Assembly (NCBI RefSeq): GCF_014697575.1
Contig: NZ_JACJSC010000008.1
Location: forward strand, 93,075 to 157,074
Reading direction: 5' to 3'
DNA length: 64,000 bases
Origin: Planktothrix sp. FACHB-1365
GTDB lineage: Bacteria > Cyanobacteriota > Cyanobacteriia > Cyanobacteriales > Microcoleaceae
The notes beneath the pieces were generated by a model. That model was not told the DNA's origin and searched no databases. It saw only the letters and a list, made by a program, of their open reading frames with translations. A program made the position numbers and the translations under genes. The stretch's first letter is position 1. Each line of letters opens with the position of its first letter. Below, piece by piece: positions 16,340-62,624 of this stretch.

Positions 16340-16354
16340 AACACCCTAAATCAT

Positions 16355-17122: not shown

Positions 17123-17160
17123 ATTGATATTATATCATTATTGTTTCATCCCATAAACCC

Positions 17161-26540: not shown

Positions 26541-26573
26541 ATAGGGGTGACGACAGTTGCCCCTATGTTTTTG
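26541..26573 (+). terminator. Intrinsic terminator of psaB: ATAGGGG-(12 nt)-CCCCTAT then GTTTTTG
   Basis: 7-bp GC-rich stem plus T-tract about 30 nt after the psaB stop, read directly. Confidence 0.55.
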
Positions 26574-26633
26574 TGCTTCAGTATTAGAAATCAGGTTAGC
26601 TATTATAGGGATGAACCTTGTTGCAACACCACA

Positions 26634-38100: not shown

Positions 38101-41100
38101 CCTGTAAAATTTAATGAGGTGTCTCCCTCTAATTTTCCATTTAAAATTTGCAAGCTTTGATAATAGGTGGTCAAAATTAATAGTTCTGACGGAGGTTTAA
38201 AATTTTGTAATTGATTTAAACACTGACTCAATTCAAACTCCAATTCAGAGACATCGTTTCCCGTGAAATAAGCGATTTCAAGATAAGCTTGAGCGAGACA
38301 ATAAGCTTCATCAATTTTCCCAGCTTCTTGAGCTTGTAAATAGCAAGTTTTGAGGGGAGATAAAACCTGCTTTAAGGAAGTTTTCCAAGGTTTAATAAAC
38401 CGATAAACCAGTTGTTTAACTTTGATAATTAATGCGGAATTTGCTTGTTTTTGCGATAATTCTAAAGCTAATTCTCCCATTTGATTCCCGAACTCAATTT
38501 CCCCTTGGGTACAAAGAATAAATCCAAAGACAGCATAGACAAAACTTGATAACGTTGTATTTCCTTGTTGATACGATAAATGAATCAGTTTTAAAACCCA
38601 AAATGGGAATTGTTCGGGAATTACCCGATAAGCGGAAGGAAAAGCAGAGGTTAAAATTGTAAATAAATTTACTAAATTAGTATCGGATAATTCCGGTAAA
38701 TCTAATAACGCTAAGGGTGTTCTTCCCCCTAAATCATTCATAAAATTATGCTTAAATTTTTGCCAACTTTCTTGACTAAAATTATCACCCCAGGTAAACC
38801 CTAATTGTTGACAAACAGCTAACGCAAGATTGACCGCATTGTCATCTTGATTTTGAATTCTATAAGCTTGAATCATTAACTCATAAATTCTGACTTTATG
38901 TCCTAATGTTTGAGCATTTTCTAAAACAATATTTCCCCACTTCTGTAAATTTTCCCAATCTTGACTAAGATAAGCAATTTCTGCTGCTTCTGTGTATAAT
39001 TCTAAGGTTAATTGATAGTCTCGTTCCCAACTCTCCGTTGTCAATAGCCCCAGACCAATTGCTAAATGTCCAATGGCTGTCGGATAGGCGGTGGCAATTT
39101 TGGCTTTTCGTCCGGCTATTAAATTAAATAAGGCTAATTGATCTCGTTCTTTTTGATCCTGAATTAAGCCGACTCCTAAATTAAGTTGATTAATGATATT
39201 TAATAAAACTTCGGTTGAAATTTTATTTAAAATCATCTTAATGGATTGATTAAAATATTGTTTTTTAATTTGATTTAAAAGGGAATTTCCGATTTTCAAA
39301 TGGGTCGCTTGTCGTTGATGAGTGGGAATTAAAAGATAAGCAGCTTGTTGAACCCGGTCATGAATAAATTGGTATTTATCAATACCGGGTTGTAACAACG
39401 GTAAGGTTTCATTCGGATCAAAGTGTGAAGGGTAAGATACTTCAGTTTCTAAGGAATAAAAGGGATAAATATCTCTAGCAATAACAATAAATTGAGCCTG
39501 TAAAGCAATTTCTAAAGCTTTTAATGTTTCTAAATAAGTTTTTTGAGTTGCGGTGGCTAAATCTACTGCATTAAATTGATTTCCTAAACAAGCCGCAATT
39601 TTTAAAATTTCTTGGGTGTTTGGCGGTAATTGTTGTAATTGATGAAGAATTAAATCTAAAATATTAGAGTTAATAGAACGGGTTTTAATTTGAGTTAAAT
39701 TACATTGCCAACCTCCGAATAAATTTCGATTTTTCAACGAAGATTGAGGCGGATTAAACCAAATTAGTTTTTCTGTATATAAGGATTGGAGAAATTGACG
39801 AACAAAAAAAGGATTTCCTTGAGTTTTTTGACTGACTAATTCTGCCAAAGGTTTAGCCCGGTCTAAGGAACAAACTAATGTTTCTGCTATTAGTTGATTA
39901 ATGGCAGAATCTTCTAAAGCATTTAAAGGAATTCGATGTAAGGGAATTCCTGAATTTTCTAAGGTTTCTAAGATTTTAATTAAAGGATGTGTTTCCCCGA
40001 TCTCGTCATCCCGATACGCTAAAATTAGCACTAAGGTTGGAGGTGTAGAATAAATATTTTGTTCAGGACTCATCAAAACCTGAATTAATCGTAAGGATTC
40101 AACATCAGCCCATTGTAAATCATCTAAAAAAATGACTAAGGGATGATGAGGTTGGGCAAAAGTTTGAATGAGCTTTTGAATTAAGCGATTAAACTGATTC
40201 AGGTCAATTTTGACCTCTAATTCAGTCAGGGAAGACTGTTGATTTAATAAAACTTTCAGTTCAGGAATAACAGCCATTAAAACCGGGGCTTGATCTCCGA
40301 GTCCATTTAAAAGTTTCTTTTTCCAAGCTTCTACCTGTTCCAAAGGTTCAGTTAACACTTGTTGAATTAATTGTTTAATTCCTTGTACCCACCCCCAGAA
40401 AGGCGTATTCGTTTTAAATTGATCAAATTTTCCGGTGATAAAATAACTGTGAATAAAGGTGACGCAAGGAGTTACGGGCAGAACTCCTGTTCGACAATAT
40501 GCCACGGTTTGATAGAATTCTTGAACGAGGGCGGACTTGCCTATTCCTGATTGACCTGTAATTACAATAATTTCTGATTGAGCCTTGTTTAAAATCGAGG
40601 TTAAACGCTTAATTTCTGGCTCTCGCCCATAAAATTTATTCGGAATAATAAATCGATCATTTAAGTCAATCGTCGCCAAAGGAAACGGAGGAATGTCCCC
40701 CAGTTTTTCCCATTGTTCTAAACAATTTTCTAAATCATAGCGCAGTCCTAATGGTGTTTGATAACGCTCGTCTGGATTTTTAGCCATCAATTTTAAGATA
40801 ATATTATTGAGCATTATCGGTAAGGTTGGTTTAATTTTGCTTAAAGGCTGAGGAAGCAGGGCTAAGTGAGCATGGATTAATTCTAGGGGATCGGAGGATG
40901 GAAACGGAAGTTTTCGAGTTAATAATTGATAAAGGGTTACTCCTAAAGAGTACAAATCTGTGCGATAATCAATACCCCAATGGGTTCGTCCGGTTTGTTC
41001 GGGAGACATATAAGCTAAAGTTCCTTCTAATCCTTGAGAATTAACAACTTCTTGATGGGAATGGTTGAGTTGAATAGAAATACTGAAGTCAATTAGTTGA

Positions 41101-41567
41101 ACCCTCAAAGTTTCCGGGTGAATTAAAATATTTTGCAGCTTAACATCTTTATGAATCACCCGATGTTGATACAATTGTTCTAAAATTTGAGTAATTTCAA
41201 TGGCAATTTTTAATAATTCACTGAGGGTTAGTTCTCGCTGTACCAAATAATCGGCTAGGGAAATATAGCCTTGATCAGCCATAATCAAGGCAAACCCATT
41301 ACAATAGGGTTCTAAATCCAGAATCGGAACAATACCGGATATATTAAGAGCTTTGGCGATGCGATATTGATTTCTAAATTCAATCAAAGAAGGTACGGTT
41401 GGATATTCACTGCGTAATAGTTTAATCACAACCGGGTAATTATCAGATAAACGAATCCCACGATAAACCAGTGTTCTCGAACCATTATAAATCGGGTTAA
41501 GAATCTGATAGCCAGGTAGGGTGATCATAGCGGGGTTTTTGTTTATCGAAGCGGGGAAGGGTGTCAT
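35199..41567 (-). CDS. 2122-aa multidomain signalling protein: Ser/Thr protein kinase - AAA/NB-ARC-like ATPase - TPR array - GAF (x2) - PAS - class III adenylate/guanylate cyclase
   Basis: Kinase: HKDVKLQNILI catalytic loop, LIDFSIS (DFG variant), GTLAYMSPEQ. P-loop VITGQSGIGKS with hhhhDD (FLDDLQWAD). Long helical TPR-like middle. PAS (QTTREGHYISANPALAKILGY). Cyclase FADIRDFTSLSE ... KYIGDEIMALFG ... VNVASRIE. Confidence 0.85.
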   Translation of the reverse strand: MTPFPASINKNPAMITLPGYQILNPIYNGSRTLVYRGIRLSDNYPVVIKLLRSEYPTVPSLIEFRNQYRIAKALNISGIVPILDLEPYCNGFALIMADQGYISLADYLVQRELTLSELLKIAIEITQILEQLYQHRVIHKDVKLQNILIHPETLRVQLIDFSISIQLNHSHQEVVNSQGLEGTLAYMSPEQTGRTHWGIDYRTDLYSLGVTLYQLLTRKLPFPSSDPLELIHAHLALLPQPLSKIKPTLPIMLNNIILKLMAKNPDERYQTPLGLRYDLENCLEQWEKLGDIPPFPLATIDLNDRFIIPNKFYGREPEIKRLTSILNKAQSEIIVITGQSGIGKSALVQEFYQTVAYCRTGVLPVTPCVTFIHSYFITGKFDQFKTNTPFWGWVQGIKQLIQQVLTEPLEQVEAWKKKLLNGLGDQAPVLMAVIPELKVLLNQQSSLTELEVKIDLNQFNRLIQKLIQTFAQPHHPLVIFLDDLQWADVESLRLIQVLMSPEQNIYSTPPTLVLILAYRDDEIGETHPLIKILETLENSGIPLHRIPLNALEDSAINQLIAETLVCSLDRAKPLAELVSQKTQGNPFFVRQFLQSLYTEKLIWFNPPQSSLKNRNLFGGWQCNLTQIKTRSINSNILDLILHQLQQLPPNTQEILKIAACLGNQFNAVDLATATQKTYLETLKALEIALQAQFIVIARDIYPFYSLETEVSYPSHFDPNETLPLLQPGIDKYQFIHDRVQQAAYLLIPTHQRQATHLKIGNSLLNQIKKQYFNQSIKMILNKISTEVLLNIINQLNLGVGLIQDQKERDQLALFNLIAGRKAKIATAYPTAIGHLAIGLGLLTTESWERDYQLTLELYTEAAEIAYLSQDWENLQKWGNIVLENAQTLGHKVRIYELMIQAYRIQNQDDNAVNLALAVCQQLGFTWGDNFSQESWQKFKHNFMNDLGGRTPLALLDLPELSDTNLVNLFTILTSAFPSAYRVIPEQFPFWVLKLIHLSYQQGNTTLSSFVYAVFGFILCTQGEIEFGNQMGELALELSQKQANSALIIKVKQLVYRFIKPWKTSLKQVLSPLKTCYLQAQEAGKIDEAYCLAQAYLEIAYFTGNDVSELEFELSQCLNQLQNFKPPSELLILTTYYQSLQILNGKLEGDTSLNFTGHAENGTIGTTEIGYSTQEISFELSLNFMVLNYRLDQLQQAKEWSQQAEYYLNQDTYFVLQPFFYCYQSLINLAIYPELSPEDQVKILEKVTQNQEKLKAFSQGTPMNFSHLFYLVEAEFNHIQGDYIKAIEAYEQAITLAKTYQFIQEEALAEELAAKFYLDWGKEKIARVYLIDAYYSYAHWGALAKVKDLESRYPQLLHSILSQLVIPTTGTTISNNTTETIISSSHGGSAALDLATVTKASQALSQEIDLEQLLKRLIQVVIENAGAEKCCILLSKSGKLAIEAIASLNPTKGGSIEIESLLKSVSVEQSNVLPLLILNTVIQTQEFLILADARQESRYRNDPYLIEHQSKSILMTPIQNRGKLIGILYLENNLATAVFTPERLEVLKILFSQAAISIDNAKLYSQVRNNEQQMTQFLEGIPVGVAVLDPTGKPYFTNQKAQQLLKTKVTPGLFCEALSNIYQAYLNWCQQHQFDQLTPYCDLYNPTPDTTFLLEVNQGEQTILLENWVTPTYDEEGDLMYAILAFQDITKRQQTELALRQAEEKYRSIFENASEGLFQTTREGHYISANPALAKILGYDSPWDLMSTVMNVEEQIYVDSQRRLDFIQLIDQQGEVSGFEFKAYRKDGSIIWISENARAVFNDQNELLYYEGFVVDITERKTAEEERLQFMAKLSELNHHLDEALDSEFELTDAAARFVPHEFLSFLGYESIVEVQLGAAVQKEMSILFADIRDFTSLSEGMTPEDNFKFINAFLSRMEPAIVENYGFIDKYIGDEIMALFGGSADDAVRAGISMISRLNEYNETRQRPERPPIKIGIGINTGGLMLGIVGGKNRLDSTVISDSVNVASRIENLTKNYGVSLLITHPTFMALGNANEYAIRIIDRVKVKGKSDAVTVYEVFDSDLPEIKAGKLRTKTTFEYGLMQYYLERYSEAARLFQECLHYLPMDKVAQIYLERCLSKMS

Positions 41568-41718: not shown

Positions 41719-44535
41719 TCAACTTATTATAGTTGATTCGGTGAGGGTCGTCCGTGAGCATCCTGCAAATATCCAACCTTCGGGTAATATTGCCCCCGTT
41801 AGGATTACTTCTGTGCAGTTGACTTCATTGACAACAGCACCCTGGAGAGTAGCATCGGAAAGATCGACCTGTGTTAAATTTGTCCCACTCAAATTAGCAT
41901 CCTTTAAGTTAGCGCGAACCAATGCTGCCATACTCAAATCAGCATCACTGAGATCTGCACGACTCAAATCACAAGAATTCAATTGAGCCTGTTGTAAATT
42001 AGTCCCAACACATTTGACTCGCTGTAGATTAGCACCTGTCAGGTTAGCTCGGCTTAAATTCGCTACTACTAATTTAGCGTAATTTAAGTTAGCATGGGTG
42101 AGGTTGGTTTGTTGAAGATTGGCTCCTATTAAATTAGCATGACTTAAATTAACTCCTGTTAAATCGAGAGCGGATAGATTTGCGCCTTGAAAATTGCGAT
42201 CGCCATTCTGATATCTTCGCAGCAGTTCTCCGCCATCGGTGATGCTGATATCTCGTTGGGGGGGAAACCGTAAACGAAAGGTTAAAGTATTTCCACTTTC
42301 AATCACTCGTGCTAATTCTTCATAAAAAGGATAGGAACCTAAACCGCTTAACCTCAACCAACCCCGTGAACGAGTCATGGCGACAAATAATTGATTACGG
42401 AAATTAAGATTATTTTCAGCAATTGCAATTTGATCTAATCCCACTAAATAAACCATATCGGCTTCGTGTCCTTTGGCGCGATGAATACGAGAAATCGTTA
42501 CCCCGCCTTCACACCAAAATTGATTAGCATGGGCATTATTAGAGGTGGGTTTGAGAATGTTACAGTCTGGTGTTCCAGGGATAAAAATATCAATTCCTTG
42601 CTGGATTAAACAACGAGCAATCTGGGTTTCAAGTTCTATGGCTTCCCATCCCATTCCTAAAACAATCACTAATATTTCTCGACTGGGACGTAAGCCATCA
42701 ATTTTTAAGTTGTATAGAATGCGATCGCTTAAACTAATTAATTCTTCCGAACGAGAACGATAGGCTTCAAATTCAATTAATGGTTGTTTCCATAATGCTG
42801 CTATAGGATTAGGTGAGTTGTGTTCAGGACGATGAAGGGTAATGGTTTCACCCAACTTTAAAGGAGAGTTGTAGGGAGAGTTTTCGGGTTCTTTTAAGTT
42901 TGTTAATCTGACGTTATACCCGATCATTTCCCAATCTTCTGCCCACTGCATTCCGGTTAATAATCCTTGCGGACGCAATAACCCTAAACCAATGCCGTGA
43001 GCGGCTGTTAAAATGGGGGCTGGAATCCGATAGGATCGAGACATAATCTCGGTTTTTTTAATGCCGTTGCTATATTCTCCTGTAACTAATTGTCCCCACT
43101 CATCTCCAAATAATTCGCTGGCTGTTGGTACTTTTAAAGTTTCTAAACTTTGAATTTCATCATAAGCCCAAATCAAGCGTTTTTGAGGAATTTCAGGGTT
43201 ATTGTCTTTTTCTCGATTAACAGGACGTAAGGCTTGCACTGCCATCCAATAAAAAGGCTGTTTTCCCTCAAATTTTAAATCTTCATCAACGATAAAATCC
43301 TGACCTTCATCTATTAAAATAGCATCAAAGATGGCGGGAATTGTTGCCGATGCTAATAAATGATAACACGCTTCTGCTAAGGCTTCATTGGCAGTTGAAC
43401 GAGTGGTTTGTTGAACACTTTGGCTCCAAACTCCGGCAGCTTGACAAAGGGTACGATAAAAACCAGGTTGATCTTTTGCTCCCCAAGCATGGAGCACTTT
43501 TAATTTAGAATTCTGGGGATTATACCCAATTTGATTACAACTAAATCGCTTTAACCATTGATCAATATATTGTAAAATTGGATCATATAAACTGCGACTA
43601 AAAAATACAATGGCAATATCCCATTCAGGATGTTTTAGGTGCATTTGGGCGGCTTTTTGACACAGTAATACTGTTTTTCCTGAACCTGCAATTCCCCGAA
43701 TTCGTTGGGGCCCTGGGGGGATGACCTTGGCAATTTGTTCCTGTTGTAAATCTAGTTCAGAAACCCGTTTTCTAGCAATAGCTAACACCGCACTGCGGGT
43801 TAAAGCAGGTTCTAAGTTATCCCAATTTGTTAAGAAAAAGCGACGACTGGGTGGACGAAATAAGGGTGTTCCACTAATGACGGCTTTTAATAGTGCCCAT
43901 TGTTCGGAGGAAAGTTCACTTCCCGGCGTGACTAACGGTGCATTCTCAATTTTTTCAATTAAACTAGAGTGTTGACCGTTGACGGGTGAAGGTTCCGAGA
44001 AAAAGGGTGTGTTTGCTGTAAACCCTAGATCTTCTTGAAATAGAATAGGAGGAGAACTGGGCAACCGATCAAATCCCCGGTGTTGCCATTGAGAGTGAAG
44101 AATGCGAGGTAAGGCGACGAGGACACGACCGGGAACTTGATGATGCAGGCTCTCTTCTAAGTTGCAATAGTCCAGTAGGGCAAAGAGTTGATGTTCTGCC
44201 TGTTGATAGGGGTTCGCCCGGGTGGTATAAAAGTTTTGGAGTTGCCAGTGATGACCTGTAATTCCTAGAATTTGCTCAATTGTTATTGATTTCACTTCAA
44301 TAATAATTAATCCCAATTCTGCATCTACGATTAATATATCTGGTTCTTTCCGAAAGGTTCCCAATTTTTTCGAGAAAATCGGAAACTGCCAATAGGCAAT
44401 ACAATCTCGTGGCTCAAAGCTTCGGCAAATCGCCATCCAGACTTGAGATTCGGCTTTTTCTCCTGCTATAAACAGGGGCTCAGTGGTAATAAATTTACGA
44501 TCTGGGGACAAGGGGACAAGGGGATGGGGGGACAA
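41719..44535 (-). CDS. 938-aa NERD domain - SF1 (UvrD-like/DUF2075-type) helicase - C-terminal pentapeptide-repeat protein
   Basis: NERD: KEPDILIVDAELGLIIIEVKS. Walker A IRGIAGSGKTVLL. Motif II AILIDEGQDF. Motif VI FVAMTRSRGWLRLSG. The C-terminal ~170 aa are tandem A(N/D)LSx pentapeptides (GANLSALDLTGVNLSHANLIGANLQQTNLTHANL...). Its first ~11 codons are STRR-like GGGGACA heptamer repeats (44504..44537), so the true start is probably the internal Met (MAICRSF). Confidence 0.8.
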   Translation of the reverse strand: MSPHPLVPLSPDRKFITTEPLFIAGEKAESQVWMAICRSFEPRDCIAYWQFPIFSKKLGTFRKEPDILIVDAELGLIIIEVKSITIEQILGITGHHWQLQNFYTTRANPYQQAEHQLFALLDYCNLEESLHHQVPGRVLVALPRILHSQWQHRGFDRLPSSPPILFQEDLGFTANTPFFSEPSPVNGQHSSLIEKIENAPLVTPGSELSSEQWALLKAVISGTPLFRPPSRRFFLTNWDNLEPALTRSAVLAIARKRVSELDLQQEQIAKVIPPGPQRIRGIAGSGKTVLLCQKAAQMHLKHPEWDIAIVFFSRSLYDPILQYIDQWLKRFSCNQIGYNPQNSKLKVLHAWGAKDQPGFYRTLCQAAGVWSQSVQQTTRSTANEALAEACYHLLASATIPAIFDAILIDEGQDFIVDEDLKFEGKQPFYWMAVQALRPVNREKDNNPEIPQKRLIWAYDEIQSLETLKVPTASELFGDEWGQLVTGEYSNGIKKTEIMSRSYRIPAPILTAAHGIGLGLLRPQGLLTGMQWAEDWEMIGYNVRLTNLKEPENSPYNSPLKLGETITLHRPEHNSPNPIAALWKQPLIEFEAYRSRSEELISLSDRILYNLKIDGLRPSREILVIVLGMGWEAIELETQIARCLIQQGIDIFIPGTPDCNILKPTSNNAHANQFWCEGGVTISRIHRAKGHEADMVYLVGLDQIAIAENNLNFRNQLFVAMTRSRGWLRLSGLGSYPFYEELARVIESGNTLTFRLRFPPQRDISITDGGELLRRYQNGDRNFQGANLSALDLTGVNLSHANLIGANLQQTNLTHANLNYAKLVVANLSRANLTGANLQRVKCVGTNLQQAQLNSCDLSRADLSDADLSMAALVRANLKDANLSGTNLTQVDLSDATLQGAVVNEVNCTEVILTGAILPEGWIFAGCSRTTLTESTIIS

Positions 44536-52025: not shown

Positions 52026-55000
52026 ATGAACAGTGCGAATAGACAGCCTACTTTCAAGGTTTTGTCTTCTATTTTCGTGGGCTTTTTCCTCAGCGCGAAT
52101 CCCGGTTTAACTCAACCCATTACCCCCGCTAACGACGGCACAAATACGATTATTACTCCCAATGGCAATCAATTTAATATTAATGGGGGAACTCGTTCAG
52201 TAGATGGGAATAATTTATTTCATAGTTTTGAAAGGTTTGGTTTAGAACCCGGACAAATTGCTAACTTCCTTTCTGACCCTGCTATTCGCAACATTTTAGG
52301 ACGAGTCACCGGAGGAGAAGCTTCAATTATTCAAGGGTTGATTCAAATTACGGGGGGAAATTCTAACTTATTTTTAATGAACCCTGCGGGAATTATTTTT
52401 GGTGCAGGTGCAAGTTTAAATGTTCCGGCTGATTTTACCGCGACAACGGCTACGGGAATTAGTTTTAATAATAATTGGTTTAATGTTAGTGGTAATACCG
52501 ATTATAACAGTTTTAACGGAAATCCAAGCGGTTATGCTTTTGCGGTGACTCAACCCGGAGTGATTCTCAATGAAGGAAATTTAACGTTATCTTCCGGTCA
52601 CAATTTAACCTTATTGGGAGGAACTGTTATTAATACGGGGGAACTTTCTACACCCGAAGGAACTATTAATATTGTTGCGGTTGAAGGCGATAGTTTAGTT
52701 CGGATTTCTCAAGAAGGACAATTGCTGAATTTAGAAGTTTCTCCTTTGAATTTAACGACCCCAGAATCAACCATTACCCCCTTAACATTACCCCAATTAT
52801 TAACGGGGTCTAAAGCTTATAGTGCCACAAATGTAACAGTTAATGATCAGGGTCAGGTGATTTTAACGGGTTCTAATACGATTATTCCAGAACAATCGGG
52901 AGTTGCGATCGCTTCTGGGGATATGAAAGGAAATATTGTCCTACAAGCGGATAATGATATTACGGTCAATGAAACTATAGAAACCAGTGAATCTGTCGAA
53001 TTAAAAGCGGGACGAAGTATTAATATTAATGCTGATATTAATAGGACTGAAGGTAATGGAGATATTATAATTCAGGGAAATTTTGATAAGGGAAATGCAG
53101 AAAATCGAGCCGAAGGTGCAGCCAATATTAATCAACAAGATGGAACTACTTTAAATGCAGCAAGTGGCAATATTTTAATTGAGTTAGGGAAATTAGGAGA
53201 AGTTGGAGATATTAATTTAGCCAATATTAATACAACAGGGGAAGTTGTTGTTAATGCTAATGGCGGTAATATTAATCGAGTTTCAGAAGATTCTTTAATT
53301 ATTGGTGCTAATGCTCTATTTAAAACGACAGAAACCGGAGGAATTGGAACGGAAACTGAACCCTTAAGAATTCAAGCAAATAATTTAGAAGCGATATCAG
53401 GAAGCGGGGGAATATTTGTTGATGCTTTGCAAGGATTAACAATTGGGGGTGTGGATGATAACATCAAAGGACTTTCAACTCAGAATGGGGGTGATATTGT
53501 TCTGAATGTTGACGGAGATTTAACCGTTAATGAAGTTATTTCAACTCAATTCACCAAGAATCAAGATGCTGGAGATATTACGATTATAACTCAGGGAAAT
53601 TTTAATAGTTCTCAAGCTCCAATTATTAGCGATCCTTCGTTTGTTGATTGGGAAAATGGAGAAAATTGGGAAAATTTAGGAGATGGGGGAAATGTAACGA
53701 TTAAAGCTGATGGCAATATTATTGCAAGTGATATTTATTCCTCTTCAAATCAGGGAAATGGAGGAGATATTAACCTTGACAGTCAAAATGGTTATATTGA
53801 TACTAGCTTAGGAGGGTTAAGCTCTTCTTCCTATGGAGATGGAGGAAATATCAATTTAACGTCTAATGGTAATATTATTATAAATAATATTGATTCTTCT
53901 TCAATTAAAAATGGAGGAAATATTAACCTTGAAAGTACAAATGGTTACATTAGCTTAGGAGGTTTAAAATCTTATTCTTTGGAAGGAGAGGGTGGAAAGA
54001 TCAATTTAACGGCTAATGGTAATATTACTACAGGTGAAATTAATTCCTATTCAGAGAATGGAAATGGAGGAGATATTAGCCTTGAAAGTACAAATGGTTA
54101 TATTGATACTAGCTTAGGATGGTTAACCTCTGGTTACAGATTTTTTGGAAGAGATGGAGGCAACATTAATTTAACAGCTTATGGAAATATTATTACAAAT
54201 AATATTTATTCTTTTTCAGACAATGGAAATGGAGGAAATATTACCCTTAAAAGTACAAATGGCAATATTGATACTAGCTTAGGATCGTTAATTTCTTATT
54301 CCTGGCTCTGGGAACAAGAAACAGATGGAGGAAAGATCAATTTAACGGCTAATGGTAATATTACTACAAATTCCATTGATTCTTATTCATATCAGGGAAG
54401 TGGAGGTGATATTAACCTTGAAAGTAAAAATGGTTATATTGATACTCACTCAGGAGATTTAAACTCTTCTTCTGACGGAGGAGGAAATGGAGGAAACATT
54501 AACTTAAATGCTAAAGGTATTGTCATTACAGGTAATATTTATGCAGGTGGGAATACACAAGGTGGAGATATTGCTCTGACCAGTCGTTTTAATGACGTGG
54601 TAACGTTAGGCAACTTGGTGCGTGGATCATCAAAAGCCACTATTAGTGCGTTTGGTAATATTGACTTAGGAACAATCACAGGAGATAGCATCAATTTAAG
54701 TCCTGATGACAATAATTTAGATCCCAAAGATGGGGAAGTTCAACTACAAGCTCATAATGATATTACCATTCGAGAACCTCTAAATCTTGAGCAAGTTTCT
54801 AACTTAGAAATTCGAGCCGGACGCAATATTAATATTAAGGCAGATATCGATACTTCTGAAGGAAATGGTAATATCTTTTTACAAGCGAATGACAAAGGTG
54901 CTGAAGCGAGTTTACGAGGGGAAGGAACCGGAAATATTATTATGGCAGAGGGAACAACCCTGAATGCGGGTAGTGGAGATATTACCCTGCAATTAGGAAA

Positions 55001-58000
55001 TTTTGGAGATGAAAGTAATATCGGTAATATTATTATTAATAACCTTGAAACAACAGGAAATATAACCGTTAATGCTCTAGGAGGGAATATTTTACAAAGT
55101 TCTCCCAGTGCATTAATTCAAGCTGAAAATGCGATTTTTCAAACAAACGAAACAGGGGAAATGGGTCAATCTGAAAACCCTATCCGTTTAGATGTTAATT
55201 ATTTAGAAGCCGTTACAGGACAAGGAGGAGCCTATTTCTACTCACCCCAAGGTAATCTAAATATAGGAGGAGCTAATTCTTTGTTACGTGGAATTACTGC
55301 TTTTGAAGGGGGTGATATTGAACTCCAAGTTGGGGGTGATCTTAAAGTACAAGAACCCCTGATTACAAATCGGGGTAATATTACTTTAAATGCAGAAGGT
55401 TCTATTAATACAACACAAGCTGATATTAGTTCTTCTTCATATAACGGCAATGCCGGAAATATTATGCTGTCGGCAAGGGGTGATATTCACACTGGTTCTA
55501 TTTCTTCATCTTATTATTCTGAGAACTCTGACACAGGTGATGCCGGAAATATCAAAATCGAAAGTACCACAGGTTCTATTAATACAACACAAGGTAATAT
55601 TAGTTCTTCTTCAAATTCATATAACAGCACTGCCGGAAATATTACACTGTCGGCAGGGGATGATATTCAAACAGGTTATATTTCTTCATCAATCTATGGC
55701 GCAGGTGATGCCGGAAATATCAAAATCGAAAGTACCGCAGGTTCTATTAATACAACACAAGGTGATATTAGTTCTTCTTCATCTACTGGCAATGCTGGAA
55801 ATATTACGCTGTTAGCAAGCGGTGATATTCAAACAAGTAATATTCATTCATCAAGCGCTTTCCTCGGTAATGCCGGAAATATCCAAATTGAAAGTACGGC
55901 AGGTTCTATTAATACAACACAAGGTGATATTAGTTCTTTACAAGGTGATATTACTTCTTCTTCATTGTCATATGACGGTGCTACCGGAAATATTACACTG
56001 TCGGCAGAGGGTGATATTCAAACTGGTTTTATTAATTCATCAATCTATACCACAGGTGATGCCGGAAATATCAAAATCGAAAGTACCGCAGGTTCTATTA
56101 ATACAACACAAGGTGATATTAGTTCTTCTTCATCTGGTGGCAATGCTGGAAATATTACACTGTCAGCAAGCGGTGATATTCAAACAGGTTCTATTTCTTC
56201 ATTCAGCGATGGCACAGGTGATGCCGGAAATATCAAAATCGAAAGTACCGCAGGTTCTATTGATACAACACAAGGTGATATTATTTCTGCTTATAATGGA
56301 AATGCCCAAAATATTACACTGTCGGCAAGGGGTGATATTCAAACAGGTTCTATTTCTTATTTATCAAGCGATGGCACAGGTGATGCCGGAAATATCAAAA
56401 TCGAAAGTACCGCAGGTTCTATTGATACAACACAAGGTGATATTACTTCTTCTTCTTGGAGTGGCAATGCTGGAGATATTATTCTATCGGCTAAAAATAA
56501 TATTATTACAGCGAATATTTATTCCTTGATTTCGCAAAATAGTGACTTCAATGTTGATGATTCTCAAGGAAATGCAGGGAATATTATATTAGAAAGTCGT
56601 GATGGGAGTATTGATACAACATCAGGTTACATTTTTTCATCTTCTCCCAATGGAAATTCAGGAAGTATTAGCCTTTCTGCTTTGGGTGATATTCGGACTG
56701 GTAAGATTGATGTTTTATCGGCTTTTAATATAACGTTTGAACCTAACCCTAATCCAGAAATTCCTACACCTCCTGTGATGGTGATAGATTTTGATCATCC
56801 AATTTCACGAACCAGTGGACTTGCTGGGGATATTTCAATTAGTAGTACAAACGGAAGTATTAATACAACAGGTGGTGCAATTAACTCTCAATCTCCCGAT
56901 GGTTCAGGGAATATTATCCTTAATGCGAATGGTGATATTACAACAGGTTTAATGACTGCGGCTGCTTTAAATTCTTCTAAAGCAACAACAGGAGGAGATG
57001 TTACGATTAACAGTGATGCAGGAAATATTAATATTACCCAAAATTTAGAAACATTCTCAGAAAAAGGAACGGCTGGAAATGTTAACCTCAACACATCAGG
57101 AGGGAATATTACCACTCAAGAAATTCTATCGAATGGTGATCAACAAGGTGGTAATATTACGATTGGAAGTAGCGATACTAACGCCATTAATCTGCAAGGT
57201 TCCTTAACCACTTTATCTGAAAATGGAATTGCTGGGGATGTTAACCTTACGGCTAATAATGGAATTACCATTAATAGCATTAATTCAACAGGGTTACAAC
57301 AAGGCGGTAATCTTGAAATTATTTCAAAAAATGGTAATATTGATGCTACAGGAGGCAATTTAGAAACCTTATCAACACAAGGAACAGCCGGAAATGTCAT
57401 CCTCAGCACATCGGGAAATATTACCACTCAAGCAATTGAATCAAATGGATATGAACAAGGCGGTAATATTACCATTGGAAATGGCGATACTAACGCCATT
57501 AATCTACAAGGTTCCTTAACCACTTTATCTGAAAAGGGGATAGCTGGAGATGTTAATCTCACGGCTAATGAGGGAATTACAGTTAATGGCATTCATTCAG
57601 AAGGATTACAACAAGGGGGAAATATTGAAATTTTTGCTGAGAATGGGAATATTGATGCGACGAGAAATAATTTAGAAACTTTTTCTGAGGAAGGAATTGC
57701 TGGAAATGTTACGTTAAACGCTATCGGTTCTGTTAATACCAGTAATATTACTTCATTCGGCTCTACTGAAAGCGGAGATGTCACCATTACCAGTGGTAGT
57801 ATTATAACAGGAAATATTACAACCCAATCCGATAACGGCCCCTCTGGAAATATTTTCCTCAATTCTATTGCACTTCAAGGCAATATTGAATCTGCTAATC
57901 TTTCTTCTATTGGTAACACCCAATCTGGAGATATTACCATTAAAGCTGAGGATGGTTCTATTCAAACTGAAAATATTGGTTCCCAGTCAGAAGCAGGAGA

Positions 58001-60095
58001 TTCTGGAAATGTTAATGTTAACGGTGGGGATGATGTAACAACAGATAATATTACCACCCAAGGGGAAACAGGAAGTGGCGATGTTAATGTGAATAGTCAA
58101 GAAGGTTCTGCTACGACGGAAGATGTGACTTCCAGTTCTAATAACGGCAATTCTGGTAATATTAATGTGGATGCTGCGAATGATATTAAAACAGACAATA
58201 TTACCACCCAAGGAGAAGCTGGGAGCGGAGATATTAATATTAATAGTCAACAAGGTTCTGCTACGACCGCAGATGTGACTTCCATTTCTAATTCAGGAGA
58301 TAGTGGGAATGTTAATATTCAAGCTTCAGAAGAGATTAATTTGGGAAATGTCCAAACTCTAGCAGGGGAAAATAGCGGTAATATTAATATTGATTCTACT
58401 AACGGGGGCGTGAATGCCGGAAATATAGAAAGTATTGCGGAAACAGGAAGTTCTGGGAATATTGATATTAATGCTCAAAATAATATTGAAGTCGGAAAGA
58501 TCATAACAAATGGAGCCATCAGTAGTGGAAGTGTTAACCTCAATAGTGAAGCAGGAGAAATTAATCATCAAGGAATCCAAATTGGCAATAATTTACCTAA
58601 CTCTTCCATTGATAGTATTAACAATACTCCCGCTTCTGTTTTGACTCAGCCTGCTCAAAATTTCCCTGATAACTCTTCAAATAGTGCTAATAATACATCA
58701 ACTACTCAAATTCCAGAAAACTCTACTCTTGTCAGCACAGAAAACTCTACTCTTGTCAGCACAGAAAACTCTACTCTTGTCAGTGCAGAAAACTCTACTC
58801 TTGTCAGTAATAGCTTTCATGAAAATTTTGATTTAGCTCAACAAAATTTACAACTGAATAGTTATAGTTCTTTCATCACGGAAATGAACGCAGCATTTCT
58901 GGAAGTTGAACAAAATCGCACCCAGGAATTCAAAACTTACTTAGGAGAAGGATTTTCTAATCTTTTGGTAACAACAGCCAGTGTCCGAAATGTCTTAAAA
59001 ACGATTCAGGAGCAAACTGGAAATCATTCAGCAGTGGTTTATGTGTCTGTTAAACCTCAACAAATAGAACTCATTGTATTTGATGCAACGGGTCAGCCAC
59101 ACTTACAAACTGTTCCTGTTTCACAAGATGAATTATTAAAGGTAAAACGGGAATTTATGGAAACCATTACTTCTCCTCGTTTCCGTGAATCTGATGCTTA
59201 CCTCGCTCCGGCTCAAAAACTCTATCAATGGTTAATTCAACCCATAGAAGCTCATCTGAAAGAGGCAAAAATTGATACTCTACTATTAAGTATGGATTCA
59301 GGATTACGCGGTTTACCTATTGCAGCCTTACACGATGGAAAACAGTTTTTAGTTGAAAAATATAGCTTGAGTTTAATTCCCAGTATTAGTTTAATGGATA
59401 CTCAATATCGTAGTGTCGAGGATGCACCTGTATTAGGAATGGGCGCAAGTGAATTTATTGATGAGCAAGCCTTACCTGCGGTTCCCTTAGAGTTAGCGAT
59501 TATTACGGAAAAATTACGGAAAGGTCAAAGCTTTCTTAATGAAGAATTTACCAAAAATAATCTAATAAAACAGCGTCAAACTTATCCTTATCGGATTGTG
59601 CATTTAGCAACTCACACAGAGTTTTTACCGGGAAGTTTAGAGCATTCTTATATTCAATTGTGGCAGGATGAGAAGCTCTATTTTAATCAATTTCGACAAT
59701 TAAAATTGAATAATCCCCCGGTAGATTTATTAGTCTTATCTTCTTGTCGAACTGCTATTGGTAATGAACAAGCCGAATTAGGGTTTGCGGGATTAGCGGT
59801 ACAAACGGGGGTGAAGTCGGTCTTAGCAAGTTTGTGGTATGTTAACGATCAAGGAACATTAGGGTTAATGAGTGAGTTTTATACCCATCTCAATCAAAGC
59901 CCGATTAAGGCAGAAGCATTAAGACAGGCGCAAATTTCGATGATTCAAGGTCAAGCCAACATTGAACTTGAGGCGTTACAAGGATCTTCTATACAAGTGG
60001 ATGAAAAGTCCCCGATTCAGTTACCTGACATGAACCGGGATTTTTCCCATCCCTACTATTGGTCAGGGTTTACAATGGTTGGGAGTCCTTGGTAA
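52026..60095 (+). CDS. 2689-aa secreted giant: signal peptide + TPS (filamentous haemagglutinin N-terminal) domain + ~2000-aa Gly/Asn/Ser-rich beta-helical repeat shaft + C-terminal CHAT (caspase-like protease) domain
   Basis: TPS domain: ...NGNQFNINGGTRSVDGNNLFHSFERFGLEPGQIANF...GGEASIIQGLIQITGGNSNLFLMNPAGIIFGAGASLNVPADFTATTA (NPxGI motif). Shaft: degenerate ~20-aa and highly regular ~57-60-aa repeats (GDAGNIKIESTAGSINTTQGDISSSS...GNAGNITLSASGDIQTG...). CHAT: ...YRIVHLATHTEF... and ...DLLVLSSCRTAIG... (His/Cys dyad context), ending YYWSGFTMVGSPW. Confidence 0.85.
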   Translation: MNSANRQPTFKVLSSIFVGFFLSANPGLTQPITPANDGTNTIITPNGNQFNINGGTRSVDGNNLFHSFERFGLEPGQIANFLSDPAIRNILGRVTGGEASIIQGLIQITGGNSNLFLMNPAGIIFGAGASLNVPADFTATTATGISFNNNWFNVSGNTDYNSFNGNPSGYAFAVTQPGVILNEGNLTLSSGHNLTLLGGTVINTGELSTPEGTINIVAVEGDSLVRISQEGQLLNLEVSPLNLTTPESTITPLTLPQLLTGSKAYSATNVTVNDQGQVILTGSNTIIPEQSGVAIASGDMKGNIVLQADNDITVNETIETSESVELKAGRSININADINRTEGNGDIIIQGNFDKGNAENRAEGAANINQQDGTTLNAASGNILIELGKLGEVGDINLANINTTGEVVVNANGGNINRVSEDSLIIGANALFKTTETGGIGTETEPLRIQANNLEAISGSGGIFVDALQGLTIGGVDDNIKGLSTQNGGDIVLNVDGDLTVNEVISTQFTKNQDAGDITIITQGNFNSSQAPIISDPSFVDWENGENWENLGDGGNVTIKADGNIIASDIYSSSNQGNGGDINLDSQNGYIDTSLGGLSSSSYGDGGNINLTSNGNIIINNIDSSSIKNGGNINLESTNGYISLGGLKSYSLEGEGGKINLTANGNITTGEINSYSENGNGGDISLESTNGYIDTSLGWLTSGYRFFGRDGGNINLTAYGNIITNNIYSFSDNGNGGNITLKSTNGNIDTSLGSLISYSWLWEQETDGGKINLTANGNITTNSIDSYSYQGSGGDINLESKNGYIDTHSGDLNSSSDGGGNGGNINLNAKGIVITGNIYAGGNTQGGDIALTSRFNDVVTLGNLVRGSSKATISAFGNIDLGTITGDSINLSPDDNNLDPKDGEVQLQAHNDITIREPLNLEQVSNLEIRAGRNINIKADIDTSEGNGNIFLQANDKGAEASLRGEGTGNIIMAEGTTLNAGSGDITLQLGNFGDESNIGNIIINNLETTGNITVNALGGNILQSSPSALIQAENAIFQTNETGEMGQSENPIRLDVNYLEAVTGQGGAYFYSPQGNLNIGGANSLLRGITAFEGGDIELQVGGDLKVQEPLITNRGNITLNAEGSINTTQADISSSSYNGNAGNIMLSARGDIHTGSISSSYYSENSDTGDAGNIKIESTTGSINTTQGNISSSSNSYNSTAGNITLSAGDDIQTGYISSSIYGAGDAGNIKIESTAGSINTTQGDISSSSSTGNAGNITLLASGDIQTSNIHSSSAFLGNAGNIQIESTAGSINTTQGDISSLQGDITSSSLSYDGATGNITLSAEGDIQTGFINSSIYTTGDAGNIKIESTAGSINTTQGDISSSSSGGNAGNITLSASGDIQTGSISSFSDGTGDAGNIKIESTAGSIDTTQGDIISAYNGNAQNITLSARGDIQTGSISYLSSDGTGDAGNIKIESTAGSIDTTQGDITSSSWSGNAGDIILSAKNNIITANIYSLISQNSDFNVDDSQGNAGNIILESRDGSIDTTSGYIFSSSPNGNSGSISLSALGDIRTGKIDVLSAFNITFEPNPNPEIPTPPVMVIDFDHPISRTSGLAGDISISSTNGSINTTGGAINSQSPDGSGNIILNANGDITTGLMTAAALNSSKATTGGDVTINSDAGNINITQNLETFSEKGTAGNVNLNTSGGNITTQEILSNGDQQGGNITIGSSDTNAINLQGSLTTLSENGIAGDVNLTANNGITINSINSTGLQQGGNLEIISKNGNIDATGGNLETLSTQGTAGNVILSTSGNITTQAIESNGYEQGGNITIGNGDTNAINLQGSLTTLSEKGIAGDVNLTANEGITVNGIHSEGLQQGGNIEIFAENGNIDATRNNLETFSEEGIAGNVTLNAIGSVNTSNITSFGSTESGDVTITSGSIITGNITTQSDNGPSGNIFLNSIALQGNIESANLSSIGNTQSGDITIKAEDGSIQTENIGSQSEAGDSGNVNVNGGDDVTTDNITTQGETGSGDVNVNSQEGSATTEDVTSSSNNGNSGNINVDAANDIKTDNITTQGEAGSGDININSQQGSATTADVTSISNSGDSGNVNIQASEEINLGNVQTLAGENSGNINIDSTNGGVNAGNIESIAETGSSGNIDINAQNNIEVGKIITNGAISSGSVNLNSEAGEINHQGIQIGNNLPNSSIDSINNTPASVLTQPAQNFPDNSSNSANNTSTTQIPENSTLVSTENSTLVSTENSTLVSAENSTLVSNSFHENFDLAQQNLQLNSYSSFITEMNAAFLEVEQNRTQEFKTYLGEGFSNLLVTTASVRNVLKTIQEQTGNHSAVVYVSVKPQQIELIVFDATGQPHLQTVPVSQDELLKVKREFMETITSPRFRESDAYLAPAQKLYQWLIQPIEAHLKEAKIDTLLLSMDSGLRGLPIAALHDGKQFLVEKYSLSLIPSISLMDTQYRSVEDAPVLGMGASEFIDEQALPAVPLELAIITEKLRKGQSFLNEEFTKNNLIKQRQTYPYRIVHLATHTEFLPGSLEHSYIQLWQDEKLYFNQFRQLKLNNPPVDLLVLSSCRTAIGNEQAELGFAGLAVQTGVKSVLASLWYVNDQGTLGLMSEFYTHLNQSPIKAEALRQAQISMIQGQANIELEALQGSSIQVDEKSPIQLPDMNRDFSHPYYWSGFTMVGSPW
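55390..56520 (+). repeat. Near-identical ~170-180-bp tandem repeats (~6-7 copies) inside the giant TPS-CHAT gene
   Basis: Recurring nucleotide block gatgccggaaatatcaaaatcgaaagtaccgcaggttctattaatacaacacaaggtgatatt... seen directly at ~55540, 55710, 55870, 56050, 56220, 56390. The repeats keep two alternative frames open, which yields the artefactual ORFs 55390..55815 and 55822..56529. Confidence 0.6.
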
Positions 60096-60887
60096 AAGCT
60101 AAGGGTAAGATTTTGGCTCTCCTACCCCAAAGTGACAAAGTTTTCAGGAATTTTTCTTTTGACACTCACCGACCTAAAGGTACGGTGATTCTTGGGCTGA
60201 ATCTTGCCTCTACCAGGAATGCCAGTTTTGGTCTTACAGTTTCATGTCTAGTCCGACTACACCTTTTACAGCAAGCACTCTTAAAGACTACTCCCCAAGC
60301 GTAAATTTGGGTATGCCCTACCCTATTTGATTTTTTTTACTCTCCCACCTATGCCATATTTTTTAGAGGGCACTCAGGTATTGGGGCAACCCATGAGGGC
60401 TGGTGACATTAGTTTTTATACAGCGTGTGAGTTCGTATGCCACGACTACATCTACGTTCCCGCTTATTTTCAATTCTAACAGAAATCCGTCGTAGAACGA
60501 TAGGGTTTTAGACCCATTTTTTCGATAAGATGGAGAAAGCATTGCATTATAATATGGCAGGTTCAGCCATTGGTTGTGCGGCATCATCATAACTGGTCAG
60601 CACCCCGCTCTGAAGAGACGGGCCTTCATGCCTCTAACTTTAGATAGCTGACCAGCCTCAGCCTAACGGCTACGTTTTCTGGATCATAATACCCACGAAT
60701 GCGACGCTAGTTTGTGGCTCTATTGTTAACAATTAAACAGTTTTACGAGGGGTAAGACAGTGTTGTTAGCGCAAAAAGTTCAGAAAACATGGGCGAAGCG
60801 AACATTACCCTAGAAATAGGAGTTATTTCATGTCTAATAAGGATGGTTATTCTTATGGATTCTAAAAAAACAGGCGGTTAAAACCGT

Positions 60888-62624
60888 TTGGGAAGGTTTT
60901 CCTCCTCGCTCGCTTATAGACGAGGCTTCCAACCTTCCCATGTTTTTCTTGTGAAACTACCCAACGAGAAGATTAATTTGATGGCACGTCTCAATCACTC
61001 AACCCTTCGTCGGCTTCAAAATTTACCCCAAATTCCCAGTGTGTGGGAAGGGGATCGACGTCCCATGGCGACGGATACGAATCCCAGTATTGATGCAGAC
61101 TCCGAAGCACCGGGCGAATGTATTATTTGGGTGGACGGTTCTCAGGGGATGGTGCGAGCAATGGATATGGTTCCAACGGATATGGGGCCAGAAGCAATTG
61201 TGCGGACGTTACTACGAGCAATGGAACATCCCCAAAGTCCCGCACCTGTGGCTCGTCCTCAAAAAATAGTCGTTAAAGATCGCGAAATTCAATTTTTCCT
61301 GCGGGGTGTTCTGCAAGATTTAGAAATTGTGATTGAATATGTCCCGGATTTACCTCTAATTGATGAAATTTTTCGGGGGTTGCAAGAAGTAGCGGAAAGT
61401 CGCCCCCCTCAACTCCCCCTGCAATATGCGGAAATTGTTACAGAAAAAGCTTATCAGATTTGGAAAGATGCGCCTTGGGAACGCTTAGGAGAACATCAAA
61501 TTATTTCCATTGAATTGAATCTCTTTGGAATTGATACCTTATATATCTCTACCTTGGGTAAACTGGGGATGGATTATGGGGTATTAATGTATCGTTCTTT
61601 GGACTCGTTAAAACGGTTTCGAGAGCGAGTTGTGAAAAATAAATCCTATGATAATTTAGAAGAAGCTTTTTTAACTCAAGATTGTTTATTTGTCACCTTT
61701 GATCGAGAAGATGATTTGGATGAAGATGAAGATGAAGATGATTTTATTAACCTCGCCAGCTTACCTTTATCGGAAATTCAACCCAATTTTGGTAATCTTC
61801 ATCCCTTAGAAGGATTACGTTCAATTTTGTATGATGAAGAAGCGGCTGTTGTTTTAGTGGCATTAGAAGCACTACATCGATTTTTACGCGATAATAGTCA
61901 AAAATTAGTTCGATATCAATTCCCCAGTCTTAACCGTCGATATCGGATTCCGATTAATTTACCCGATGGGGAGAAAAAACAGGTATCGGTGAAGGTAGAA
62001 ACCTTACCTGATATTGCCGATGAATTAGCTGCAATGACTTCTGATGACGAATCAGAAGACGAAGAACTAGAGGTCGAAGTTCCTCGGTTACGCGATGATT
62101 TAGTTCCTCCTAAATCGTTCTTAAGTTTAGGTGTTGTTCCTTGGGAAACTGCCAAATATTTACGGAGTAATACCCAATTTCATCAAGCCGCCGAGGGGGA
62201 AATTCCTGAAGTTGGAGATGGTTTACCTGTGGTTGTTATTCAAACCTCTAAACCCAAAGCAGAACTGTTAATTCGCAGTTTACAAGAAGCGGGAGGGCTC
62301 GAAGGCATTTGTTTTAATCCCGGTGAAGACCCCATGGCGGGACGCAATTATGATTTAGGAATTTTGAAAACGGAAGATGGAGATTTACATTTATTTGGAG
62401 AGTTTATCGAAGATGATCCCGTTCATCAAGAAGCGCGCAAAAAATGGGAACAACGGTGTAAAAAAACCAAAGGTTGGTGTGGTTTAATTATTGCCATGGG
62501 ATTAACCGGGGCTTCACGGGGTCAACCTCAATTTAAGGATATGATGGCATTGTTAGAAGTTCGTTCTATTCCTTCTCAAGAGTTAGGTTTAGGGCCATTA
62601 CAATTAATTCCAGCCCCGTTTTAA
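60888..62624 (+). CDS. Hypothetical acidic protein (578 aa), no recognised domain
   Basis: A long ORF with a native-like TTA/AAA bias and D/E-rich stretches (DREDDLDEDEDEDDF; SDDESEDEELEVE). The true start is likely internal (MARLNHSTLRRL... at ~60981). Confidence 0.5.
   Translation: MGRFSSSLAYRRGFQPSHVFLVKLPNEKINLMARLNHSTLRRLQNLPQIPSVWEGDRRPMATDTNPSIDADSEAPGECIIWVDGSQGMVRAMDMVPTDMGPEAIVRTLLRAMEHPQSPAPVARPQKIVVKDREIQFFLRGVLQDLEIVIEYVPDLPLIDEIFRGLQEVAESRPPQLPLQYAEIVTEKAYQIWKDAPWERLGEHQIISIELNLFGIDTLYISTLGKLGMDYGVLMYRSLDSLKRFRERVVKNKSYDNLEEAFLTQDCLFVTFDREDDLDEDEDEDDFINLASLPLSEIQPNFGNLHPLEGLRSILYDEEAAVVLVALEALHRFLRDNSQKLVRYQFPSLNRRYRIPINLPDGEKKQVSVKVETLPDIADELAAMTSDDESEDEELEVEVPRLRDDLVPPKSFLSLGVVPWETAKYLRSNTQFHQAAEGEIPEVGDGLPVVVIQTSKPKAELLIRSLQEAGGLEGICFNPGEDPMAGRNYDLGILKTEDGDLHLFGEFIEDDPVHQEARKKWEQRCKKTKGWCGLIIAMGLTGASRGQPQFKDMMALLEVRSIPSQELGLGPLQLIPAPF

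Follow-up and report, generated by a model that had tools for sequence, protein, structure and literature searches.

To our knowledge, work on two-partner secretion (TPS) has centred almost exclusively on proteobacterial pathogens, and the roles described for CHAT proteases are confined to those of intracellular switches (separase, Craspase, CBASS). The gene analyzed here, located within a 64,000-nt stretch of contig NZ_JACJSC010000008.1 from Planktothrix sp. FACHB-1365 (the whole stretch is hereafter referred to as the window), brings the two together. Its product starts with a TPS domain and ends with a CHAT domain, the two being separated by a stalk of about 2,000 amino acids (aa), and is best described as a variant of a two-partner-secretion substrate (TpsA) with a CHAT protease as cargo. 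Like HMW1, EtpA, and HxuA, the window protein carries what appears to be an N-terminal Sec leader, followed by a TPS domain with an NPxG turn and by a long, apparently right-handed beta-helical passenger; by analogy, it probably also relies on a partner (TpsB) consisting of POTRA_2 and a ShlB barrel, such as those encoded next to the TPS-CHAT genes in 14 other loci. It differs from these proteins in that its stalk repeats belong to no Pfam family and in the C-terminal CHAT module, which they lack; furthermore, the TpsB gene of the TPS-CHAT family is usually unlinked, and the family is cyanobacterial in all matches seen.

Two other TpsA systems are relevant for comparison. In Bordetella, fhaC is found in the same locus as fhaB. 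FhaB/FHA (filamentous haemagglutinin) resembles the window protein in its very large size and in having a C-terminal region outside the adhesive shaft, and it sets a precedent for control of maturation by a C-terminal module residing in the periplasm, although the FhaB prodomain has no enzyme fold and is degraded. FhaB also belongs to the NPNL-containing subfamily of TPS domains, whereas the window TPS domain matches the other subfamily (PMC5422565). CdiA shares the succession of TPS domain, long beta-helix, and C-terminal enzymatic domain, but its C-termini are polymorphic, demarcated by VENN, and followed by an immunity gene, with cdiB adjacent (PMC5422565); none of these features is present in the window protein.

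At the other end of the protein, the resemblance is to Csx29/TPR-CHAT, SAVED-CHAT, DdvA, and separase, which share with the C-terminal module a two-lobed fold with a pseudo-protease half and a second half that is active or, here, predicted to be active (Foldseek E about 1e-14 to 1e-6) and a His/Cys dyad at strand ends. These proteins, however, work in the cytoplasm or nucleus and require RNA, nucleotide, or protein ligands for activation, whereas the window CHAT domain is fused to a secretion substrate and depleted of cysteines. Gingipain R, a secreted clan CD cysteine protease, is likewise among the fold matches, but gingipains represent another clan CD family and use type IX secretion. LepA of Pseudomonas aeruginosa is a protease exported by a TpsB (the LepA/LepB system), and thus a TPS-exported protease has precedent, although LepA is not a CHAT protein and lacks a 2,000-aa stalk. 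Should the CHAT module of the window protein work beyond the cytoplasm, it would be the first CHAT protease with an extracytoplasmic activity.

The open reading frame (ORF) is intact (2,689 codons) and lies in a region of 37% G+C. Pfam recognizes only two domains in the entire protein, TPS (PF05860) and CHAT (PF12770). The gene and its N-terminal export region comprise the following features:

52026..60095, + strand: complete tpsA-type gene, 2,689 aa from ATG, about 279 kDa, isoelectric point (pI) 4.1
52026..52112, + strand: putative Sec-type signal peptide, about aa 1-29, from sequence, family consensus, and hydropathy
52134..52724, + strand: TPS domain, aa 37-233, Pfam PF05860, E=1.8e-37
52380..52391, + strand: NPAG turn motif, aa 119-122, the family version of the TpsA NPNG motif

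The assignment of the TPS domain is secure at the level of curated profiles: PF05860 scores 130 bits against a cut-off of 33.5, and the NCBIfam model TIGR01901 (adhes_NPXG, the filamentous-haemagglutinin N-terminal model) matches aa 65-142 with 76.5 bits against a cut-off of 29.1. In addition, a profile of the family N-termini matches the solved TPS domains of EtpA, HMW1, and HxuA, which places the window TPS domain in the subfamily without the NPNL hairpin (PMC5422565). The conserved beta-turn motif of the NPNG type is needed for secretion of TpsA proteins (PMC5422565), and N119, P120, and G122 of its local version are invariant in 16 diverse relatives. The domain is preceded by a leader in which MNSANRQPTFK is followed by the hydrophobic core VLSSIFVGFFLSA and then by NPGLTQ; the basic n-region and the 13-residue hydrophobic core were recognized from the sequence and its hydropathy. 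In relatives, the leader consensus AxA-Q directly precedes the conserved PITPAxDGTGT, from which the putative cleavage site of the window protein was deduced, and the conserved mature start PITPAxDGT has the same spacing from the leader in the window protein as in the relatives.

The C-terminal end of the protein is occupied by a conserved module with an equally clear profile match:

58863..60092, + strand: conserved C-terminal module, aa 2280-2689, with a long N-terminal helix, a pseudo-caspase-like half, and a CHAT half predicted to be active
59205..60086, + strand: CHAT domain, aa 2394-2687, PF12770, E=1.1e-70, profile positions 2-289 of 289
59601..59624, + strand: HLATHTEF, aa 2526-2533; predicted catalytic residue His2530, immediately following a beta-strand
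59736..59756, + strand: LSSCRTA, aa 2571-2577; predicted catalytic residue Cys2574, at the C-terminal end of a beta-strand

An AlphaFold2 model of this module, built with 27 diverse sequences, has a mean predicted local distance difference test (pLDDT) score of 85.3 and a predicted template modelling (pTM) score of 0.89 and adopts the caspase-hemoglobinase fold. Its best Foldseek matches are Csx29/TPR-CHAT of the type III-E Craspase (E about 1e-14), followed by separase, the anti-sigma factor DdvA, and SAVED-CHAT, and, more distantly, by gingipain R and caspase-1. As is typical of clan CD, the modelled His comes just after one strand, and the Cys terminates the second strand after that one. 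H2526, H2530, and C2574 are invariant across the 27 diverse sequences. The motifs HLATH[GAST]xF and LVLS[AS]C[RQ]TA are found in 98 of the 120 best relatives, the remainder being truncated entries; here and below, motif counts among relatives refer to the best 120 of more than 1,700 matches. Searches of the PDB by sequence, whether with the single sequence or with a profile, returned either spurious adenylate-kinase matches or nothing in place of a solved CHAT structure, and the equivalence of the His/Cys dyad consequently rests on the Pfam alignment, the invariance of the residues, and their strand-end positions. Collectively, these data and the fold model support the assignment of the C-terminal module to the CHAT (clan CD, caspase-like) cysteine peptidase fold, predicted to be active.

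Between the two domains, the central ~2,000 aa match no Pfam family, Fil_haemagg_2 included. G, N, S, I, and T prevail in this stalk, which consists of repeats with periods of 165, 162, 312, 150, and 24 nt, together with a duplicated module of ~280 aa:

52782..53630, + strand: stalk module A, copy 1, aa 253-535, 40-43% identical to copy 2
54600..55433, + strand: stalk module A, copy 2, aa 859-1136, from self-comparison with copy 1
53706..54446, + strand: array of ~55-aa (165-nt) repeats, 4.6 copies, from repeat analysis and AlphaFold2 model
55532..56481, + strand: array of ~54-aa (162-nt; also 351-nt) repeats, with repeat similarity spanning about aa 1040-1560
57042..57709, + strand: 104-aa (312-nt) repeats, 2.1 copies, with similarity spanning about aa 1640-1940
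57994..58316, + strand: 50-aa (150-nt) repeats, 2.2 copies, from repeat analysis
58714..58807, + strand: low-complexity linker, four copies of ENSTLVS(T/A), 24-nt period, 97% matches

The AlphaFold2 model of aa 296-760, for which eight homologous segments were used and which covers about one fifth of the stalk, contains only short, evenly spaced strands (pLDDT 91.6, pTM 0.91). Its Foldseek neighbours are almost all right-handed parallel beta-helices, including those of HMW1, EtpA, HxuA, and FHA, all with E>0.07. The model, the repeats, and the composition support a stalk that is beta-helical or, more generally, an all-beta solenoid.

This architecture had been anticipated in a first-pass annotation made from the sequence alone, and most of that description holds. 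The ORF boundaries and strand that it gave were exact, and the motifs that it quoted, NPAGIIF (aa 119-125), HLATHTEF, and LSSCRTA, were all located in the protein. The N-terminal TPS domain, the ~2,000-aa stalk of beta-helical repeats, and the C-terminal CHAT domain with its His/Cys dyad were each borne out by the profile matches, repeats, and models described above; the annotation had named a missing dyad as a refuting condition, and this condition does not hold. The following gene (60888..62624) is, as proposed, acidic and soluble rather than a beta-barrel: its product has a pI of 4.76, no transmembrane segment, and DUF6930 and DUF7309 domains.

The cysteine content provides an additional line of evidence on the CHAT domain. 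C2574 is the sole cysteine among the 2,689 residues, and the same pattern extends across the family: exactly one Cys follows the leader in 79 of the 96 full-length relatives (median length 2,468 aa), compared with about 28 predicted from the local proteome frequency. Such a loss of cysteines appears to be a signature of unfolded passage through an oxidising compartment, and the single retained thiol is strong, albeit indirect, evidence for a functional active-site Cys. Depletion of this kind fits unfolded export combined with selection to keep the active-site thiol.

The window protein belongs to a very large family. More than 1,700 relatives were retrieved at E<=1e-10, nearly all with the precomputed architecture PF05860+PF12770, and the profile of the TPS domain identified at least 598 loci in reference genomes scanned at one genome per species. 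All named relatives are from filamentous cyanobacteria (Okeania, Trichodesmium, Dapis, Kamptonema, Oscillatoria, Planktothricoides, Laspinema, and Coleofasciculus), and several genomes encode a large number of paralogs, as exemplified by Oscillatoria princeps, Dapis BLCC M126, and Okeania. Locus analyses were performed on 80 fetched loci and two more (82 in total), in which 55 single ORFs contain both the TPS and the CHAT domain; most of the others are interrupted by a frameshift or the end of a contig. The window protein lacks a close ortholog (best full-length identity 33-36%), and conservation is distributed unevenly along its length: 63% identity at the N-terminal end and 56% in the C-terminal module, compared with about 36% in the stalk (medians over 95 relatives). 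Judging from these comparisons, the stalk evolves fast, and the two ends carry the conserved functions, predicted to be export and catalysis. Under the name 'CHAT domain-containing protein [Planktothrix sp. FACHB-1365]', the same sequence is deposited in NCBI, UniRef, and nr, where it is assigned to a 194-kb contig, and relatives are annotated under names such as 'filamentous hemagglutinin family protein'. Since annotations exist for the identical protein as well as for over 1,700 relatives, the TPS-CHAT architecture is not a discovery, and the window gene adds nothing unusual to the family. The interest of the family lies in its scale, with CHAT fused to a secretion substrate in at least 598 loci of multicellular cyanobacteria and several copies per genome, whereas the main value of the window is that an apparently missing TpsB turns out to be ordinary in an already-annotated family member.

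Some relatives, mainly from Okeania, Trichodesmium, and Dapis, carry a P-domain (proprotein-convertase, PF01483) in the stalk, which is absent from the window protein. Among the best relatives, the carriers are P0037, P0050, P0051, P0053, P0067, P0074, P0099, P0107-P0109, and P0118; Trichodesmium erythraeum IMS101 encodes one example. Tandem TPS-CHAT genes for proteins of 2,070 and 2,973 aa were found in Planktothricoides raciborskii (CP159837.1, 2929-18922 of locus L001), with no TpsB within 10 kb, which points to local expansion of paralogs.

The first-pass annotation had pointed out the absence of a TpsB gene, stating that none lies within 8 kb to either side of the window gene. In Pfam scans of every sizeable ORF, no POTRA_2 or ShlB protein was detected in the 64-kb window, and a purpose-built TpsB hidden Markov model, derived from 15 neighbour genes and run over six frames with filters off, yielded nothing at E<=10. 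The statement thus stands upstream, where the window covers 52 kb; downstream, it stands for the visible 3.9 kb, because the window ends at position 64000. The absence is no anomaly. In 58 of the 82 related loci, the fetched flanks likewise contain no TpsB, DUF928, or second CHAT gene. Unlinked tpsB genes, as well as single TpsB proteins serving several TpsAs, are established in proteobacteria (PMC5422565). Considering also that genomes often contain several TPS-CHAT paralogs, a TPS-CHAT gene without a neighbouring TpsB is the ordinary situation.

Where a TpsB gene does adjoin a TPS-CHAT gene, as in 14 of the 82 loci (identified by Pfam ShlB and POTRA_2), it is usually divergent and located 0.1-0.4 kb upstream; Nostocales account for 12 of these 14 loci. 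In Oscillatoriales, TpsB is instead part of a separate conserved module, composed of TpsB (POTRA_2 and ShlB), a signal-peptide-bearing DUF928 protein, and a membrane protein that combines CHAT and CHASE2, to which an adjacent TPS-CHAT gene is an optional addition. In Lyngbya aestuarii BL J, for instance, the module has no adjoining TpsA, and a TPS-CHAT gene of the strain (locus L035) is on a different contig. In Capilliphycus salinus, the module lies beside the gene for a 3,909-aa CHAT protein; in Calothrix PCC 7103, CHAT-CHASE2, DUF928, TPS-CHAT, and TpsB genes are found side by side. The module also recurs in assembly GCA_050485465.1. The TpsB-DUF928-CHAT/CHASE2 loci have the following coordinates within the fetched sequences:

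L053 (Calothrix PCC 7103), 6293-17766
L083/L084 (Lyngbya aestuarii), 10001-15592
L085 (Capilliphycus), 6372-11743
L086, 3594-8976

Apparently, this module has not been described previously. A different neighbourhood is seen in Microcoleus-type loci, where a CHAT-TPR protein is encoded just upstream of TPS-CHAT, together with a 384-aa protein without Pfam domains and a DUF1822 protein. A further candidate association, a GGDEF-EAL neighbour in 22 loci, was rejected as an artefact of single-linkage clustering, which had mixed CHAT-TPR, CHAT-CHASE2, histidine-kinase, and true GGDEF-EAL proteins, as judged by Pfam; true GGDEF-EAL neighbours are present in two Nostoc loci only.

Taking these observations together, we infer that the protein is exported via Sec and recognized by a TpsB whose gene is unlinked, that the stalk folds vectorially once outside the cell, and that the C-terminal protease acts outside the cytoplasm. 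The precursor would cross the inner membrane through Sec, and the TPS domain would be bound by the POTRA domains of a TpsB of the ShlB/FhaC type, whose gene would lie at another genomic site and which probably serves several TpsA paralogs. The cysteine-free chain would be threaded out unfolded and fold into a long surface fibre. The CHAT module would emerge last and act as a fibre-borne cysteine protease in the extracytoplasmic space, its targets being surface and matrix proteins of its own or a neighbouring cell rather than the interior of a cell into which a polymorphic toxin is injected. The reading toward which we lean, with slightly more confidence than doubt, is that of a giant TpsA-type exoprotein that bears such a protease on its fibre and belongs to a family restricted to filamentous cyanobacteria. 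If correct, it would make the protein a candidate participant in filament-to-filament interaction, remodelling of the sheath or matrix, or cell-death signalling in bloom- and mat-forming cyanobacteria.

Several observations weigh against this scenario. The residue after the catalytic His is a Thr in the window protein, compared with Gly, Ala, or Ser in the relatives, which could affect activity. For a TpsB pore, a folded alpha/beta module of 410 aa is unusual as cargo, and the beta-helix matches of the stalk model in the PDB are below statistical significance. No TpsB from FACHB-1365 is among the best 120 of more than 2,500 cyanobacterial TpsB matches obtained with a query from a Microcoleaceae locus, which says little given that only the best 120 of the matches are concerned. 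The searchable literature contains no study of the TPS-CHAT family, DUF928, or CHASE2+CHAT and no experimental work on any member. Finally, the precedent of FhaB allows the C-terminal module to stay in the periplasm. Noel et al. 2012 state in their title that the prodomain of FhaB stays intracellular and at the same time affects the mature C-terminal domain, and by that precedent a CHAT module retained in the periplasm would be equally possible, so that the 'protease at the fibre tip' of the first-pass annotation was overstated, being one of two topologies that the precedent allows. In such an arrangement, only the stalk would be exported, and the CHAT module would fold in the periplasm and tether the fibre in the manner of the FhaB prodomain, cleaving its own chain or being cleaved so as to release or mature the fibre, without ever acting at the tip. 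Sequence alone cannot separate this arrangement from a fibre-borne protease. Removal of the prodomain during secretion, as described in PMC4542190, is consistent with it, as are the position of the compact alpha/beta module after a low-complexity linker and the depletion of cysteines, which fits the periplasm equally with the outside; moreover, most caspase-like domains in large secreted bacterial proteins have been proposed to be autoprocessing 'releasing peptidases' (Zhang et al. 2012, PMC3482391). However, releasing peptidases are normally located upstream of a further cargo domain (PMC3482391), whereas CHAT is the last domain here, and the high conservation of the 410-aa two-lobed module seems to exceed the needs of a plug. 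We therefore regard retention in the periplasm as a serious but distinctly less probable explanation.

The layout of TPS domain, long beta-helix, and C-terminal enzyme is also reminiscent of CdiA, and the first-pass annotation had suggested a contact-dependent effector. By this account, the fibre would bind a neighbour and deliver the CHAT protease into the cell, with an immunity protein shielding kin, as in contact-dependent inhibition (CDI). Zhang et al. (PMC3482391) indeed name C-terminal caspase-like domains as possible toxins, with cyanobacteria among the lineages, and multiple paralogs are present in many genomes. Yet the C-terminal module is not polymorphic, its 56% identity exceeding that of the stalk, and the same module family is found in the 98 of 120 relatives mentioned above. 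Neither VENN nor [VIL]ENN occurs in the window protein, VENN is present in only 2 of the 120 relatives, and there is no PT-VENN Pfam match. No gene, immunity-like or otherwise, recurs downstream across the 82 loci; here, the downstream positions are taken by a HEARO RNA and an unrelated DUF6930 gene, and no cdiB-like gene is adjacent. The combination of conserved ends, a variable stalk, no VENN, and no recurring downstream gene argues against a polymorphic toxin of the CDI type, which we consider very unlikely. A purely structural or adhesive fibre, in which CHAT is a pseudo-enzyme for binding or oligomerisation and the protein is an adhesin or a scaffold of the sheath or matrix, seems quite unlikely. 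It would agree with the adhesin function of many TpsA proteins (PMC5422565), with the existence of CHAT-fold proteins that have no protease role, such as the ciliary central-pair proteins among the fold matches, and with the presence of Thr at the position after the catalytic His, where a small residue is usual; but the His and Cys are invariant across diverse members, and a catalytic Cys that is the only cysteine in 79 of 96 proteins of ~2,500 aa is hard to explain without thiol chemistry. As for the export route, the strain might possess no dedicated TpsB, the TPS domain being handled by another Omp85-family protein or in another way. The window and the best 120 TpsB matches contain no TpsB of this strain, which would be in line with such a route, but the latter absence is weakly informative, as stated above, and every lineage examined that has TPS-CHAT genes also has TpsB genes; export independent of TpsB is accordingly most improbable. 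The preferred reading thus remains that of a fibre-borne protease exported through an unlinked TpsB.

The fibre-borne protease might also be part of something larger. Calothrix PCC 7103 has all four gene types, TPS-CHAT, TpsB, DUF928, and CHASE2-CHAT, in physical linkage, and part of this linkage is seen in at least six other loci. One could imagine TPS-CHAT fibres as the secreted arm of an undescribed cyanobacterial multi-gene system, in which dispersed fibre paralogs with fast-evolving stalks are served by the TpsB module, the fibre CHAT cleaves outside upon contact with a filament or the matrix, CHASE2 senses, and the cytoplasmic CHAT relays the signal. Multicellular bacteria would, on this view, possess a caspase-like circuit for proteolytic signalling or kin recognition. 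We consider the scheme unlikely as a whole.

A role in defence was considered separately and rejected: the window contains no CRISPR type III-E or CBASS genes, and PADLOC detects nothing beyond a weak match to BovA (E=9e-6), which covers the half of the CHAT module predicted to be active.

The surroundings of the gene show no conserved synteny with those of its relatives. Promoter and terminator scans around the gene performed no better than on shuffled sequence, and Rfam revealed no regulatory RNA upstream, such as a c-di-GMP riboswitch; the only Rfam match in the window is the HEARO RNA, located downstream, in the 793-nt gap between the TPS-CHAT stop codon and the ORF at 60888-62624:

60596-60808, + strand: full-length HEARO RNA (Rfam RF02033, 155.6 bits, E=7e-33), of the HNH-endonuclease-associated class

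The ORF that follows it does not encode HNH/IscB, and no HNH ORF turned up in Pfam scans of the window; the HEARO RNA looks like an orphan copy.

Further upstream, the window contains several other genes that merit mention:

24281-26512, + strand: stand-alone photosystem I core gene of the PsaA/PsaB family (743 aa, 1,287 bits), with no partner psaA/psaB beside it
26547-26888, + strand: ParD-antitoxin-like ORF
27110-31573, + strand: uncharacterised ORF of 1,487 aa
31829-32173, + strand: 114-aa ORF with the Major Vault Protein repeat Vault_2 (E=1.3e-12)
35199-41567, - strand: 2,122-aa signalling protein with Ser/Thr kinase, AAA_16 STAND ATPase, GAF, PAS, and adenylate/guanylate cyclase domains
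41719-44535, - strand: 938-aa protein with a UvrD-like helicase C-terminal domain and pentapeptide repeats

The ParD-like ORF directly follows the PsaA/PsaB-family gene, in the stretch with the highest G+C of the window (0.46). Downstream of it, the 1,487-aa ORF has no NCBIfam match and only sub-threshold Pfam matches to helicases (Schlafen group 3 helicase and UvrD_C_2). The Vault_2 ORF partly overlaps the 3' end of a convergent HD-GYP/GAF gene (32125-33768), and the 938-aa protein with pentapeptide repeats is encoded next to the 2,122-aa signalling protein.

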